A DNA stretch of 55,505 nucleotides from Thermoleophilia bacterium (GTDB taxonomy: Bacteria; Actinomycetota; Thermoleophilia; Gaiellales; SKUG01): assembly GCA_025964435.1 (NCBI GenBank), contig JAOPYV010000007.1:1-55505 (forward strand), written 5' to 3'. Under the pieces are notes generated by a model. That model did not search any database. It was given only the letters and a program-made list of their open reading frames with translations, and was not told the origin of the DNA. The translations under genes were made by a program, and so were the position numbers. Shown piece by piece: positions 5,452-10,596 of this stretch; positions within the stretch are counted from its first letter, which is position 1; each line of letters begins with the position of its first letter.

Positions 5452-6996
5452 CTAGAAGAGGCTGATCCCGCGGCCAGGCACTGCGGCGCCGTTTGCGCCG
5501 TTCCAGCGCGCGATGTACGCCTTCGAGTCGAACTTGCGCCCCGTCGATGCCAGGGACATGAAGCGCACCTGGCCGAAGATCTCGCGCTCGTGCCACGGAC
5601 GATCGTGGACGCCACCGATCGCCCATGCCACGCCGGTGACGCCGTTCGGGTCGCGTCCGTCGAGGCTCCATCGGTCGTTGAAGCGCAGGGCGAGCTCGAA
5701 TGCGCCTGCCGCGTCGGGCCGCCACTCCAGCAGCTTCTTCGCCCAGTACATGCGCAGGTAGCCATGCATGGATCCGGTCTCGACCATCTGGTGCTGGGCG
5801 GCGTTCCAGAGCGGGTCATGGGTCGTTCCGGCCGCGAGGTCGTCCTCGTTCCAGAGCCACTCGCGCGGGTCTGCGGCATGGGTGGCGAGCGAGCGCCGTG
5901 CCCACTCCGGAGCTCCCTCGAGCTCGTGGGCATGCGGGTTCCAACGGACGAAGTTGTACGCGAGCTCGCGGCGCACGACGAACTCCTCGACGAAGGTATC
6001 GATGTCGACCGCGGGTGCCTCGGCCGCGCGGACCGTGGCCAGCACCTCGTGGGGAGCGACCTGGCCGAAGTGGACGAACGGGGAGATGTGGCTCGTGCCG
6101 TCGAGCTCGGGCCGGTTGCGCCGGGCGGCGTAGCCGTGCAGCTCCTCGTTGACGAATGCCTCGAGCCGAGCGCGCGCAGCGCGCGTGCCACTGGGCGCAG
6201 AGGTCAGGAGGCTCGCCCCGTCGGGCGTGCCTGCAGCGCGTGCGTGTGCGAGCAGGTCATCCAGCGCGGGGATCGCCGGTGCGAGGTGCACGCCCGCCAG
6301 CTGGAGCGCGGCCGCCGGCACCGGGTGTGCGGGTGCGGTGGGGCCATCGAGCCCATGGCCGAGCTCGCCGTCGAACTGCGCGAGCACCCGATGCAGCCGC
6401 GGGCGCAGCGTGCGCGCCGCGTACTCCTGGCGAGGGAAGCAGGCGCCGGGGACCACGACGTCGGCGTCGACGCTGATGAGCGGTGCGCTGATCGAATTGG
6501 CGACGTGCTCGCGGCCACGTCGCGCGCCGGCCATGACGTCGTCATCGGTGATGACGAGCGCGGGACGCAGTGCTCCATCGCGCGCGAGGAGCTCGACGAT
6601 GGGGACGCCGTCCTGCTCGACGAACAGGACGTGTGCGCCGCGGGCGATGCAGTCATCGAAGGTCTCGGGGAGCGCGCGGAGCATGAACTCGACATGGCGC
6701 AGCTCGGTGCCGGCCGGGCCGGCGAATCGTCGGAACACGACGACGAGTGGGAGGTCCAGGGCGCGCGCCGCGGCGACCGCGCAGTCCAGCGCGAGGTTGT
6801 GGCTGCCGCGCTGCGCACGCGCCATCCAGTACACGACGCTGCGGCCGTCCGCCGCGTGGGTAGCTACGTCGTTCCAGGCCAGCAGCCGCTCGGGGGCACA
6901 CGCATCCGCATCGATGCCGGCGAGCACGGCAACGGCACGCTGCTGCCGTGCATGCGTCCAGGGCGTGCACAGGGAAGTGGTCGTCTCGGGATCCAT
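5452..6996 (-). CDS. phr: deoxyribodipyrimidine (CPD) photolyase, class II
   Basis: C-terminal FAD-binding region DPLWNAAQHQMVETGSMHGYLRMYWAKKLLEW is typical of class II photolyases. Start set at MDPETTT (6996); the track ORF extends to 7089. Confidence 0.85.
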   Translation of the reverse strand: MDPETTTSLCTPWTHARQQRAVAVLAGIDADACAPERLLAWNDVATHAADGRSVVYWMARAQRGSHNLALDCAVAAARALDLPLVVVFRRFAGPAGTELRHVEFMLRALPETFDDCIARGAHVLFVEQDGVPIVELLARDGALRPALVITDDDVMAGARRGREHVANSISAPLISVDADVVVPGACFPRQEYAARTLRPRLHRVLAQFDGELGHGLDGPTAPAHPVPAAALQLAGVHLAPAIPALDDLLAHARAAGTPDGASLLTSAPSGTRAARARLEAFVNEELHGYAARRNRPELDGTSHISPFVHFGQVAPHEVLATVRAAEAPAVDIDTFVEEFVVRRELAYNFVRWNPHAHELEGAPEWARRSLATHAADPREWLWNEDDLAAGTTHDPLWNAAQHQMVETGSMHGYLRMYWAKKLLEWRPDAAGAFELALRFNDRWSLDGRDPNGVTGVAWAIGGVHDRPWHEREIFGQVRFMSLASTGRKFDSKAYIARWNGANGAAVPGRGISLF

Positions 6997-7190
6997 CACC
7001 GACAGGTTCGCACGGCCGCCGGATCTGGATGTGTTCGAGCGCTCCGAGCCCCTGATTCGGCCCTGTCCGGCAGTGGCCGCTTTCGGCATGCCCGTGGCCT
7101 ACCGCGGCCCCCGTGGCCTCGGGAGCGATGTCGGGAGCGCTCGGCCAAGCGACAGCAGGATGAAGGCTCTGCGCCACGCAGCGTCCACAT

Positions 7191-7679: not shown

Positions 7680-8486
7680 TCAGGCGCGACGTGCCGAGGC
7701 GAAGTCGCTGGCACGGGCCGGCTCCTCGAGCAGGCGGGTCAGGATGTTCGACAGCAGGATGCGCAGCTGCGGCAGGCCCCGCTGCTGGGCAAGGCGCGCG
7801 CAGTCGACCGGGCGGAGAAGGATCCCGCGGCGGTAGAGCAGCGCGGTCATGCCGATCCGGACCGCGTTCACGTGGACGCAGATGCCGAGGCCGAGCAGCA
7901 GGATGCCCAAGGCCGCGGCGATCCAAGTCTCGAGGCCCGTGTAGGGAAGCGCGGCATCGCCGACGGCGCCACCGCCAGAAGCGATCGGCATCGGGGCGGT
8001 CGCTGTCGCTGCCGCAGCCGAGGGAACGACAGCCACGGCTGCCGGAGTGGCGATCGCTGCGGCGCGGGCCGGAACCTTGGCGATCGGCTTCTTCGAGATG
8101 GGCTTCTTGGCAACCGGCTTCTTGGCGATCGGCTTGGCGGCCAGGGGCTTGGTGACGACCTTGGGTGCAGTCACCGTCGGGGCGATGCCAACACCACGTG
8201 TCGGGGCGGGGATGTCCATGCCGTCGCCGCCACCGCCGCTGACGACGCGAGGCGTCGCCTCGGTCTTGATGCCACCGGAGGCGAGCGCCTGCCAGCTGCC
8301 GAAGCCGACCAGTGCGACACCGAACAGCACGACGAGGATGCGGCCCCAGCGCACGCGTGTCGCTTGGGCCGTGCCGCCACCCATCACGGGAGCTTGGGGC
8401 GCCATCGGGGTCAGCGTCGGGAAGTTGAAGCCAGCCGGAGCGGCGTACTGGGGGGCAGTGGGCTGAAAGGCGTTGGCAGTGTGCAT
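7680..8486 (-). CDS. membrane/surface protein with N-terminal TM, KKPxA repeats, LPYTG motif, second TM and ~65-aa tail
   Basis: TM helix ILVVLFGVALVGFGSW, repeats KPLAAKPIAKKPVAKKPISKKPIAK, LPYTG followed by LETWIAAALGILLLGLGICV. Start set at MHTANAF (8486) because 8487-8564 is AT-rich. Alternative start at 8564. Confidence 0.75.
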   Translation of the reverse strand: MHTANAFQPTAPQYAAPAGFNFPTLTPMAPQAPVMGGGTAQATRVRWGRILVVLFGVALVGFGSWQALASGGIKTEATPRVVSGGGGDGMDIPAPTRGVGIAPTVTAPKVVTKPLAAKPIAKKPVAKKPISKKPIAKVPARAAAIATPAAVAVVPSAAAATATAPMPIASGGGAVGDAALPYTGLETWIAAALGILLLGLGICVHVNAVRIGMTALLYRRGILLRPVDCARLAQQRGLPQLRILLSNILTRLLEEPARASDFASARRA

Positions 8487-8584
8487 GTCGCGCGTCCCGT
8501 CTCGGCGTCTGGGGTATGCATTCGATTCATCTTGGAATGGATTTTGCAGATCGTCAACAAGCAATCTGAATATTCGCGAATGTA

Positions 8585-8600
8585 TCGAACGTACGTTCGG
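8585..8600. promoter_or_regulatory. LexA (SOS) box 1, TCGAACgtacGTTCGg
   Basis: Matches the actinobacterial LexA operator consensus TCGAAC-N4-GTTCGA at 11/12 arm positions. CGAACGTACGTTCG is a perfect 14-bp palindrome. Confidence 0.75.
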
Positions 8601-8619
8601 TTCTTGTCGGGGATGGGTA

Positions 8620-8635
8620 TCGAACGTGTGTTCGG
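8620..8635. promoter_or_regulatory. LexA (SOS) box 2, TCGAACgtgtGTTCGg
   Basis: Second copy 35 bp downstream of box 1. Both lie inside the direct repeat GTATCGAACGTnnGTTCGGTT. Confidence 0.75.
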
Positions 8636-8673
8636 TTGGATTGGTGCCGCGGGTGGCGGCAAGAGGAGCTCAG

Positions 8674-8787
8674 ATGGAACTCGTACTCAAGGTGGTCCTC
8701 GTCGGCTACGTCATGTATTCCGTGCTCGGTGCGCCCTTGGTGGCTGCGCGGCGCGACCAGGTTTCCGGGCGGCGGATCGCGCGCTGA
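8674..8787 (+). CDS. 37-aa hydrophobic peptide (candidate SOS-regulated small membrane protein/toxin)
   Basis: AGGAG (8664-8668) lies 5 nt before the ATG. Sequence MELVLKVVLVGYVMYSVLGAPLVAARRDQVSGRRIAR. G/C third positions. Terminator hairpin downstream and LexA boxes upstream. Confidence 0.5.
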   Translation: MELVLKVVLVGYVMYSVLGAPLVAARRDQVSGRRIAR

Positions 8788-8811
8788 CGCGGCGACACGT
8801 TCGGGTGGGAC

Positions 8812-8857
8812 GGGGGCGAGGAGGCGGTCGCGCTGCGCGGGCTGCATCCTCGCCCCC
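8812..8857 (+). terminator. hairpin terminator after the 37-codon ORF
   Basis: 11-bp stem GGGGGCGAGGA (8812-8822) / TCCTCGCCCCC (8847-8857), followed by GCAGTTCTTCG. Confidence 0.6.
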
Positions 8858-8944
8858 GCAGTTCTTCGCGGGTCACGGTGGCCGTTCTTGGTGCTGCCAA
8901 GATGAGAGCTACGTGCAGGTGTTTTCGTCCAAGCGGCCACAGCT

Positions 8945-8999
8945 TGGCCGCATTCGTGAAACACCGAGCTTGGCCGAACCCGATAGTCAGGTACATAGC
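8945..8999 (+). promoter_or_regulatory. conserved promoter-like box, unit A (TGGCCGCaTTCGTGAAACA-N17-CGATAGtcAGGTACATAGC)
   Basis: Aligns block-for-block with 9252-9305. The intervening sequence is not conserved, as expected for -35/-10-type elements. Confidence 0.5.
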
Positions 9000-9205
9000 G
9001 TGTGGCTATCGCCGCCGGGCTTGTCCCCCCTTTCACGCAGCTGGAGTTCCGTCCCCCCTGAAACCCAGCTGCGTTGCCCGGCAGCGTGTCGTCCCCCCGA
9101 AGCCATGCGTACCTGGTCGATACGAGCATCGTGTCCCCCGTCCCCCCTTGGGATGCGGCGCTCCGACCAACGAAAGGCCCCGGCTGTCCCGCCGGGGCCT
9201 TTTCG
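8990..9205 (+). ncRNA. candidate C-rich-loop small RNA 1 (6C-like, expanded)
   Basis: GTCCCCC(C) at 9023, 9051, 9091, 9133 and 9140, plus GTCCC in the terminator loop. 9-bp hairpin CGCAGCTGG (9036-9044) / CCAGCTGCG (9065-9073) and 5-bp hairpin GCATC (9126-9130) / GATGC (9152-9156) place the motifs in loops. Intrinsic terminator GGCCCCGG / CCGGGGCC + TTTTCG (9176-9205). The 5' end is inferred. Confidence 0.5.
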
Positions 9206-9251
9206 AATTCTGGTTCGTACGCGGGGATTTCATCGACGGCCGGCCGGCCAC

Positions 9252-9305
9252 TGGCCGCTTTCGTGAAACAAGTCCGGGCGCTGTCGCGATAGAGAGGTAC
9301 ATAGC
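9252..9305 (+). promoter_or_regulatory. conserved promoter-like box, unit B (TGGCCGCtTTCGTGAAACA-N16-CGATAGagAGGTACATAGC)
   Basis: Second copy of the box at 8945-8999, about 307 nt downstream. Confidence 0.5.
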
Positions 9306-9513
9306 AAGCAACATGCCGCCCCCGGGCGACGTGTCCCCCCTCGTCAGAGCCGATCGCGTTGTCCCCCGTCGATTGGTTTTCGCCCAGGATCCGGCTGCTG
9401 CTTGCGCGCTGCGTCACATCGCTTCCTGAACCACGTTCCCCTCGTCCCGTTTTGGAAGCGGACAGCAGCATTCGAAGCGCCCCGGTCGTCCCCCCGGGGC
9501 GCTTCTGTCTTCC
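9297..9513 (+). ncRNA. candidate C-rich-loop small RNA 2 (6C-like, expanded)
   Basis: GTCCCCC(C) at 9333, 9361 and 9488, plus GTTCCCC/GTCCC at 9435/9444. Nested stems GCTGCTG (9394-9400) / CAGCAGC (9463-9469) and GCTTCC (9421-9426) / GGAAGC (9454-9459). 12-bp terminal hairpin GAAGCGCCCCGG (9474-9485) / CCGGGGCGCTTC (9494-9505) with loop TCGTCCCC. The U-tract is weak. Confidence 0.45.
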
Positions 9514-9642
9514 TACGCGGCCGATCCGGGCCAAGGCAGGCCGGTACGCATTGAGGACGACGGGGGTCAGGCGTAGCGTTGCGACCCTCACGCCTCGGGC
9601 GTGGGGGACACGCAACGAAGCGGCAACGCAGGGGATATCGCC

Positions 9643-10596
9643 ATGCTCAACGCAACGGGCAAGATCATCATCATCATGCCGGAGCCGCGAAATGGCGGGA
9701 GTCGCCATCTTCCGCCGGTCGCCCACGCACCCCACGGAAACCATGGGTCCACGCGCCACGCGCCTCAGCCCGGATCGGTGGATCCCGTCCAGCAGCAGCA
9801 GCTGGCAGAGCATCACATCGCCGACGTGCGCCGCTTCTTCTCCGGCATCGGCGTCACGGAACGCGAAGGAAACGCATCGAACGTGCCCGTCGTGTTCGAC
9901 CCGTCCTTCGAGAACGCGGCGTACGTGCGCCAGATCGATACGCGCACGAACCAGATGGTCGGCGAGTCCCTCCAGATCGGTGTCGACCCCGAGAGTGGGG
10001 AGAGCTATGCCAAGGCGAAGGACGTCATGGCGCACGAATGGACGCATCGCATCACCAACGCGCTCGTGCCCGGGCTGCTCACTGGCGCCCACTTCGGCTC
10101 TGACATGGCGATCGGCGAGTCGCTCGCCGACACGCTCGCCGCGGCGTACGACACTGACGACTGGGACATCGGCGAGGACATCGGCACGCCCGTTCGCAAC
10201 ATGGCTGATCCAGGTCGCTACGGTGATCCGGCCCACATGACCGACCTCAAGAAGATCTACGAATCCGGTGACGAGCGGGTCCAGGTCGTCCGCCGTCCCG
10301 ACGGCCAGCATGCCTTCCGCGTCGAGGGGCACCTGCTCGCCGGCATCCCGAACAAGGCTGCATCACTCATCGGCGATGCGATCGGGCGCGACAAGATGGC
10401 CCAGATCTACCTCGACACCGCGCGCAACAACCTGCAGCCTTGTCGGGGGCTCGACGGCTATGCCGCGGGCGTCATGATGTCGGCGCGCGACCTCTTCGGA
10501 CCGCAGAGCCGCGAGTTCCAGGCGACGACGCAGGCGTTCGACGCCGTCGGCCTCCTCGACCAGGTCAAGGCGCAGCGGGAGCCGTCGCGCCGCTGA
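9643..10596 (+). CDS. M4 (thermolysin-family) zinc metallopeptidase without signal peptide (protealysin-like)
   Basis: HEXXH as AHEWTH, and a downstream Glu motif GESLADT equivalent to thermolysin NEAxSD. No N-terminal signal peptide. ATG 9643 chosen (AGGGGA SD); the track ORF starts at GTG 9601. Confidence 0.85.
   Translation: MLNATGKIIIIMPEPRNGGSRHLPPVAHAPHGNHGSTRHAPQPGSVDPVQQQQLAEHHIADVRRFFSGIGVTEREGNASNVPVVFDPSFENAAYVRQIDTRTNQMVGESLQIGVDPESGESYAKAKDVMAHEWTHRITNALVPGLLTGAHFGSDMAIGESLADTLAAAYDTDDWDIGEDIGTPVRNMADPGRYGDPAHMTDLKKIYESGDERVQVVRRPDGQHAFRVEGHLLAGIPNKAASLIGDAIGRDKMAQIYLDTARNNLQPCRGLDGYAAGVMMSARDLFGPQSREFQATTQAFDAVGLLDQVKAQREPSRR

Follow-up and report, generated by a model that had tools for sequence, protein, structure and literature searches.

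We describe a locus in a 55,505-nucleotide (nt) stretch of DNA from a Thermoleophilia bacterium (GenBank assembly GCA_025964435.1, contig JAOPYV010000007.1, positions 1 to 55,505; hereafter the window), where two tandem LexA-type (SOS) operators precede an open reading frame (ORF) for a 37-residue membrane peptide. Our analysis indicates that this is very probably a LexA-repressed, damage-induced gene for a single-pass membrane peptide, conserved in a clade of the Thermoleophilia/Gaiellales. A preliminary description of the sequence had proposed an SOS-induced membrane peptide, possibly a type I toxin; the LexA-type operators and the conserved membrane peptide uphold the former part of that proposal, whereas the type I toxin label could not be maintained. 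As to function, an SOS division inhibitor resembling SidA is slightly favored over a toxin of the TisB/DinQ kind, and the complete statement, in which the damage-induced peptide also inhibits division, is offered as a tentative one that falls short of probable. The peptide is new by its sequence and lineage, and the class of SOS-induced small membrane proteins is already known.

Results

Two tandem operators of the actinobacterial SOS type

The predicted operators, TCGAACgtacGTTCGg at 8585-8600 and TCGAACgtgtGTTCGg at 8620-8635 (neither assigned to a strand), each differ from TCGAAC-N4-GTTCGA by a single mismatch, which in both is the outermost base, so that the GAAC-N4-GTTC cores are exact. 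Each box is enclosed in a copy of a 21-nt direct repeat, GTATCGAACGTnnGTTCGGTT, located at 8582-8602 and 8617-8637 with 90% identity between the copies, and the boxes start 35 nt apart, at -89 and -54 relative to the ATG of the peptide gene. Across the window these are the only sites with one mismatch or fewer, while shuffled sequences gave a mean of 0.20 such sites and reached two in 1 of 100 shuffles; exact cores were likewise found at these two positions only, against 0.44 expected. The boxes lie in a trough of GC content (0.45-0.49 at 8500-8649, compared with about 0.70 in the surroundings). Both the tandem boxes within a longer direct repeat and the AT-rich tract around them had been noted in the preliminary description, at these same positions.

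When relatives were searched for with a peptide query padded by four upstream residues, three were found, and subsequent pattern scans of GTDB genomes extended the set to eleven loci: the window, L008, L009 (= L013), L011, L015, L016, L018, L019, L020, L021 and L142. The labelled loci are all from metagenome-assembled genomes (MAGs) of Thermoleophilia/Gaiellales, Thermoleophilia being a class within Actinomycetota, and the remainder are unlabelled metagenome contigs. Both GAAC-N4-GTTC cores are kept in all eleven. The distance between box starts is 35 nt in ten of them and 33 nt in L021, and box 2 is located 35-61 nt before the peptide ATG. In an ungapped alignment of ten loci, the half-sites were 95-96% conserved (96% in box 1), compared with 65-70% for the N4 spacers, 49% for the first 14 nt between the boxes and 53-58% for the flanks, a pattern that marks the operator pair as a clean phylogenetic footprint. 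A further invariant element, GGGTA (8615-8619, + strand), stands directly 5′ of operator 2 and is identical in 10 of 10 ungapped loci; it may belong to the -10 region (TATCGA) or form an extended contact of the operator.

The LexA consensus of Gram-positive bacteria is CGAACRnRYGTTYC, and the lexA promoters of Actinobacteria give TCGAACacatgtTCGAAC (PMC2248561); the SOS box of S. venezuelae agrees with this motif (PMC9380542). The N4 spacers of both window boxes fit the R-N-R-Y pattern of the Gram-positive consensus. As an independent check of the motif, GTDB genomes were scanned for the extended palindrome TATCGAAC-N4-GTTCGATA, and at least 120 loci were obtained, overwhelmingly from Actinomycetota (Mycobacterium, Acidimicrobiia, Coriobacteriia, Bifidobacterium and others). 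For the first 80 of these loci, the neighboring ORFs included matches to PHP (15), DNA_pol3_alpha (12, dnaE2-type), Y-family IMS (9) and DUF222 (7), and RecA and UvrA genes were among them as well. Because the same palindrome flanks dnaE2-type, Y-family polymerase, recA and uvrA genes, this result indicates that the extended palindrome is the SOS operator of the phylum Actinomycetota. The earlier identification of TCGAAC-N4-GTTCGA as the actinobacterial LexA operator is thus supported by the match to the consensus, and the pair at this locus by its conservation in 11 of 11 loci.

A conserved 37-codon open reading frame

The ORF following the operators (8674-8787, + strand; product MELVLKVVLVGYVMYSVLGAPLVAARRDQVSGRRIAR) is preceded, 5 nt before its ATG, by the Shine-Dalgarno (SD) sequence AGGAG (8664-8668, + strand), and a GGAG, GAGG or GGGAG element precedes the ATG in every related locus. 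Its GC content at third codon positions (GC3) is 0.84, compared with 0.84 and 0.85 in the flanking genes, and that at second positions is 0.41. The SD sequence, the 37 codons and the genome-typical third positions had been correctly recognized before. When four diverged copies were compared over codons 2-24, the ratio of nonsynonymous to synonymous substitution rates (dN/dS) was 0.03-0.17 at dS of 0.5-1.7, and 14 codons varied synonymously only in these copies. A search of related genomes for synonymous-only substitutions had been suggested in the preliminary description; these codons and the low dN/dS are its outcome, and they indicate that the ORF is a real gene under purifying selection. 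An in-frame stop occurs seven codons upstream in L016, and the ATG is therefore taken as the true start. A near-identical 998-bp Logan contig, retrieved by exact look-up, differs by three single-nucleotide polymorphisms, one of which falls in the box 1 N4 spacer, and carries no information on selection.

A profile search against 1.84 billion cluster representatives yielded 26 clusters (50% identity) at E ≤ 1e-3. Every one of the 26 has the core ME-x-x-K-x-x-LVGYVxYAVLGAP, after which comes a basic tail that varies, and their true length ranges from 27 to 37 residues. Gene calls from other clusters are over-extended in at least 12 cases, in which both boxes are translated as part of the protein (IERVFG, VSNVCS, RTHVRS, EHVFD and others); because these spurious N-termini contain both boxes, the operator pair is a feature of the whole family. 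The mis-started entries (P0002, P0005, P0007, P0012, P0014, P0015, P0017-P0019, P0021 and P0023) represent a systematic annotation artefact. Among 185,579 GTDB species genomes the core pattern was found in five, all of them MAGs of the class Thermoleophilia. Two further matches to the pattern, in Fibrobacterota and Chitinivibrionales, were dismissed as chance occurrences inside a large unrelated ORF.

The peptide had no match in Pfam and no significant one in NCBIfam (the best E values, 0.37 and 0.1, fall far short of the cut-offs), and no description of the family was found in the literature or in family libraries, in accordance with the earlier remark that no such peptide was known for this lineage. 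We also looked for small transmembrane ORFs after LexA boxes elsewhere in Actinomycetota and found 0 at 242 site-directions, where the background rate is 0.001. The arrangement of LexA boxes and a small transmembrane ORF does not generalize in this sample of 242 actinobacterial site-directions.

The predicted membrane peptide

AlphaFold2 modeled the peptide as one continuous helix, with predicted local distance difference test (pLDDT) values of 94 and 88 for residues 1-20, and the best 19-residue Kyte-Doolittle mean was 2.01. Family members are about neutral at the N-terminus, and the residues beyond the GAP motif carry a mean net charge of +2.2. Because the tail is basic, the positive-inside rule predicts a topology with the N-terminus out and the Arg-rich C-terminal tail in the cytoplasm, and at most 2-3 residues of the peptide are outside the membrane. 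The hydrophobic helix and Arg-rich tail of the preliminary description were therefore recovered as a single AlphaFold2 helix of high hydropathy with a basic tail.

Y12, A20 and P21 are invariant across the family, Y15 and G19 are nearly so, and at position 11 most members have G, the others A, S or M. This pattern of invariant small and aromatic positions suggests a specific helix-helix interface.

Promoters, transcript ends and gene order

The boxes share their intergenic region with a divergent gene (7680-8486, - strand), which encodes a membrane protein of 268 amino acids (aa) with an LPYTG motif and a weak Pfam match to DUF1206. Its product consists of an N-terminal transmembrane segment, Ala/Lys/Pro-rich repeats (AKKPVAKKPI...), LPYTG with a hydrophobic segment after it, and a C-terminal tail of unusual length. 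The protein is 222-311 aa long across related loci and is syntenic wherever the locus is long enough; a GTDB search for its relatives was uninformative, the matches being dominated by the low-complexity AKKP repeats. Upstream of this gene we noticed a promoter-like element (8529-8557, - strand), in which TTGACG (8557-8552) and CAAGAT (8534-8529) are separated by 17 nt and whose block TTTGCAGATCGTCAA is conserved in related loci; we infer these to be the -35 and -10 of the divergent gene, of a sigma-70-like type. The boxes lie outside this element, upstream of it, and are centered near -70 and -105 from the likely start. Since the divergent promoter lies outside the operators, the peptide gene is more likely than the divergent gene to be their target. 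The suggestion that the boxes serve the divergent gene instead is weakened accordingly.

The promoter of the peptide gene itself may be overlapped by the operators, with a -10 of about TATCGA at box 2 and, 16-17 nt upstream of it, a -35 at roughly the right half of box 1. Lack of conservation in the spacer between the boxes leaves this placement at low confidence. In the 5′ untranslated region (UTR), folding that could hide the SD sequence was not significant (z = +0.6). At the other end, the motif GGGTGGG (8803-8809, + strand) is situated in the 3′ UTR shortly before a GC-rich hairpin. GGGTGGG or GGTGGG occurs 16-65 nt past the stop codon in the window, L008, L009 (GGTGGG), L011, L016, L018, L020 and L021, and it could be a terminator element or a binding site for an sRNA (small RNA) or a protein. 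The hairpin (8811-8858, + strand) has 15-nt arms at 8811-8825 and 8844-8858 that are 93% complementary, the region folds at -55 kcal/mol (z = -2.9), and the tail after it, AGUUCUUCG, is weakly U-rich. An 11-bp GC hairpin had been reported here, and the present fold confirms it. Comparable G5...C5 hairpins are found in L008, L011, L016, L018, L020 and L021 but not in L009 or L015. The structure is likely a terminator or a stabilizer.

The gene order, a SIR2 gene, a small ORF, the divergent membrane protein, the peptide, sRNAs and an M4 peptidase, is the same wherever the locus is long enough, and the peptide gene is single-copy in the window. The M4 metallopeptidase (thermolysin-like; 9601-10596, + strand; Peptidase_M4_C E = 2e-16, HEWTH motif) lies downstream of the peptide/sRNA cluster, and a search with it as query found no relatives. 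A DNA photolyase gene without a LexA box (5452-7089, - strand) is located 1.4 kb upstream of the locus, and the window begins with the 3′ end of a 23S rRNA gene and a 5S rRNA gene (1-601, + strand).

Structured RNAs downstream of the peptide gene

Two structured sRNAs, paralogous to each other and each about 215 nt long, lie beyond the peptide gene: type A (8991-9207, + strand) and type B (9297-9512, + strand), each with 4-5 hairpin loops reading CGUCCCCCC and an intrinsic terminator. All 11 loci have one to three such units after the peptide gene, L009 and L019 showing type B only, and compensatory pairs were counted in their stems (17 of 29 for A, 15 of 58 for B). Rfam gave no match at or above its gathering threshold, either for the window or for eight related loci. 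Assignment to 6C RNA (RF01066) was rejected at 21.8 bits against a gathering score of 47, and other below-threshold matches (Rhizobiales-2, microRNAs) were not accepted as memberships. 6C RNA is likewise an actinobacterial sRNA with C-rich hairpin loops, but it has about 75 nt and two loops, whereas the window sRNAs have about 215 nt, 4-5 C-loops and an upstream region of different appearance. This consists of promoter-like blocks (8931-8999 and 9241-9305, + strand) with a palindrome GGCCAC-N4-6-TGGCC, TTTCGTGAAACA, about 18 nt, CGATAGA, 3 nt and GGTACATAG. Promoters of the sigma-W kind read TGAAAC-N16-CGTA, and the block upstream of the sRNAs resembles promoters of extracytoplasmic function (ECF) sigma factors. 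It contains no conserved LexA box. The GGCCA..TGGCC palindrome is also present directly 5′ of LexA box 1 in L008, L009, L011, L015, L016 and L018, though not in the window. A third LexA-like site, TCGAATtctgGTTCGT (9203-9218), lies between the terminator of sRNA A and the promoter of sRNA B; it has two mismatches, is conserved in no related locus and is probably due to chance.

When the loops were compared with 5546 stretches of the window, the best predicted non-self target of loops A2 and A4 was the G-rich 5′ arm of the 3′ hairpin of the peptide mRNA (8781-8840), which includes a perfect 10-nt match of GGGACGGGGG with CCCCCGUCCC; at the corresponding places in L008 there is an 11-nt match of GGGGCGGGGGC with GCCCCCGCCCC. 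For loop B1, the best predicted non-self target was the 5′ UTR of the M4 peptidase (9561-9581), which carries G-runs complementary to the C-loops. Over eight loci, the peptide mRNA ranked 1, 5, 13, 24, 94, 1, 9 and 417 among local stretches: pairing was best with the peptide mRNA in the window and L016, but not in the six others, and the predicted site shifted between 5′ UTR, coding region and 3′ UTR. The idea of the sRNA as an antitoxin, promising in the window, is not reproducible over the eight loci and is therefore kept as a reading of low probability.

Discussion

If the operators act as their sequence suggests, two LexA dimers would occupy the tandem sites in undamaged cells, probably overlapping the promoter. 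DNA damage would stimulate self-cleavage of LexA through RecA and free the promoter of the peptide gene, and a short leadered mRNA with the SD sequence AGGAG and the 3′ GC hairpin would then be translated. The peptide is predicted to insert into the membrane with its N-terminus out and its Arg-rich tail in the cytoplasm, and the invariant face of the helix (G11, Y12, Y15, G19-A20-P21) may bind a partner in the membrane, the septal peptidoglycan synthase complex (FtsW/FtsI) being the most plausible one. It would in this way be the effector of an SOS checkpoint that delays division until repair is finished, as SidA is in Caulobacter. We prefer a division inhibitor to a toxin because the gene is single-copy in the window and found in the same neighborhood wherever the locus is long enough, because small and aromatic residues are invariant, and because no RNA antitoxin was detected.

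SidA of Caulobacter crescentus is likewise a small single-pass membrane peptide of the same size class, control type and minimal architecture: it has 29 aa, is SOS-induced, resides in the inner membrane and works by contacting proteins inside the membrane, where it binds FtsW (PMC4211646). It differs from the window peptide in that there is no sequence similarity, in its origin from Alphaproteobacteria and in its other LexA motif, and a divisome target is hypothetical here. YneA of Bacillus, SosA of Staphylococcus, ChiZ (Rv2719c) of Mycobacterium and DivS of Corynebacterium are also SOS-induced and membrane-anchored, with an operator of the GAAC-N4-GTTC type in their bacteria. These proteins have about 77-165 aa, possess extracellular domains (LysM in YneA and ChiZ) and are typically encoded divergently beside lexA, whereas the window peptide consists of a transmembrane helix and a short tail only and its flanks contain no lexA. 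YneA, too, acts on FtsW (PMC13396833), and the SOS division inhibitor of Streptomyces is still unidentified (PMC9380542).

Several observations weigh against the interpretation as a LexA-controlled division inhibitor. The neighbors encode a membrane protein and an M4 peptidase, neither with a LexA domain, and the peptide lacks an extracellular domain. A simple sigma-70 scan of 8300-9700 gave no promoter, and no convincing -10/-35 of the peptide gene was located. Among the palindrome loci listed (at least 120), none is labelled Thermoleophilia, so that the association of the motif with canonical SOS genes holds at the level of the phylum, and among 142 loci no lexA gene was found on which autoregulation by the same motif could be checked. 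Moreover, the small size, the hydrophobicity, the basic tail and the two operators fit toxins of the DinQ and TisB type just as well.

According to the latter explanation, the peptide would be an SOS-induced toxin that oligomerizes and dissipates the proton-motive force or ATP, driving damaged cells into dormancy, and any RNA antitoxin, if one exists, would act in trans, being for example the neighboring C-loop sRNAs or an RNA encoded elsewhere. We consider this somewhat unlikely. DinQ/AgrB and TisB/IstR-1 of E. coli are likewise small hydrophobic peptides under LexA control, encoded by short ORFs in structured mRNAs; DinQ and TisB have 27-29 aa and dinQ also has two LexA operators in tandem (PMC3567139), so that a family of 27-37 aa with one hydrophobic helix and a basic tail resembles them, although there is no sequence homology. 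Two traits define those systems, however: an sRNA antitoxin, antisense or divergent, that shows extended complementarity, and a primary mRNA that is processed and translationally inert. Neither trait was found at the window locus. On reading the sequence, no antisense promoter-like element (of the TTGACG or GTGAAAC type) was seen in or after the ORF, and the search for an antisense or neighboring antitoxin RNA that had been suggested earlier gave no partner consistent across loci. The pairing of loops A2 and A4 with the 3′ hairpin arm in the window and the 11-nt match in L008 do speak for a toxin, but the pairing is inconsistent across the eight loci (ranks 1-417), and such matches are cheap because a C-run pairs with any G-run in a genome of 70% GC. 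In addition, the peptide matches no Pfam or NCBIfam toxin family, its transmembrane segment has no charged/polar ladder like that of TisB, its gene, in contrast to many type I modules, occurs once in the window and is syntenic, and none of the ten top-ranked papers on LexA-linked type I toxins mentions Actinobacteria. With no antisense promoter seen, no consistent RNA partner and no toxin homology, the assignment as a type I toxin is not supported.

The suggested helix-helix interface could also reflect a fixed protein partner of another kind, the peptide serving a membrane protein as an SOS-controlled small accessory subunit or modulator, much as AcrZ, KdpF or CydX do; the partner could be a transporter, the neighboring LPYTG membrane protein or the M4 peptidase. 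Strict synteny with the latter two (where the locus is long enough) is consistent with this, and transporters and proteases are among the members of actinobacterial LexA regulons (Table 1 of PMC9380542). However, synteny alone says little on a functional link because all loci come from one clade, the neighboring genes have promoter-like elements of their own and no LexA boxes, and tandem operators of high quality suggest that what they tightly repress is harmful or required only once damage has occurred. We regard an accessory role as clearly unlikely. Least probable is that the palindromes are bound by another dimeric regulator, or are LexA sites serving mainly the leftward LPYTG gene. The lack of Thermoleophilia among the palindrome loci listed would agree with the former, and the shared intergenic region, with box 1 only 28 bp from the putative divergent -35, with the latter. 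Nevertheless, the boxes match the SOS operator of the phylum nearly perfectly, including the R-N-R-Y spacer, and the same palindrome is found at dnaE2, dinB-like, recA and uvrA genes across Actinomycetota; they lie upstream of the conserved divergent promoter and not over it, box 2 is 35-61 nt from the peptide ATG, and GGGTA-box 2 is invariant on the peptide side. Either version therefore appears very unlikely.

A more far-reaching possibility, which we consider quite doubtful, is that the SOS peptide and the C-loop sRNAs, which look ECF-sigma-driven, form a joint module integrating stress signals. The sRNAs would then act on the 3′ or 5′ UTR of the peptide mRNA as an antitoxin in trans or a throttle, or both components would tune division and the envelope after damage. 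The 6C RNA of C. glutamicum has a LexA operator and influences the SOS response/survival and cell morphology (PMC5014011), and a joint module would echo this unexplained link in Corynebacterium. If true, such a module would give deep-branching Actinomycetota their first described SOS membrane effector and LexA-controlled peptide/sRNA pair.

The practical reach of the finding is limited to one clade, that is, the five GTDB species genomes mentioned above. Gene callers mis-start the peptide ORF and no domain library includes the family. Small membrane proteins of the SOS response serve either as DNA-damage checkpoints (SidA, YneA, SosA, ChiZ) or in persistence (TisB, DinQ), and since they are not homologous between lineages, the effector of each lineage must be found anew. 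For most Actinomycetota that effector has yet to be identified, and the peptide described here would provide a concrete candidate for the largely uncultured Thermoleophilia/Gaiellales, one backed by comparative evidence and for which the operators, the 37-aa product and the invariant residues are defined.

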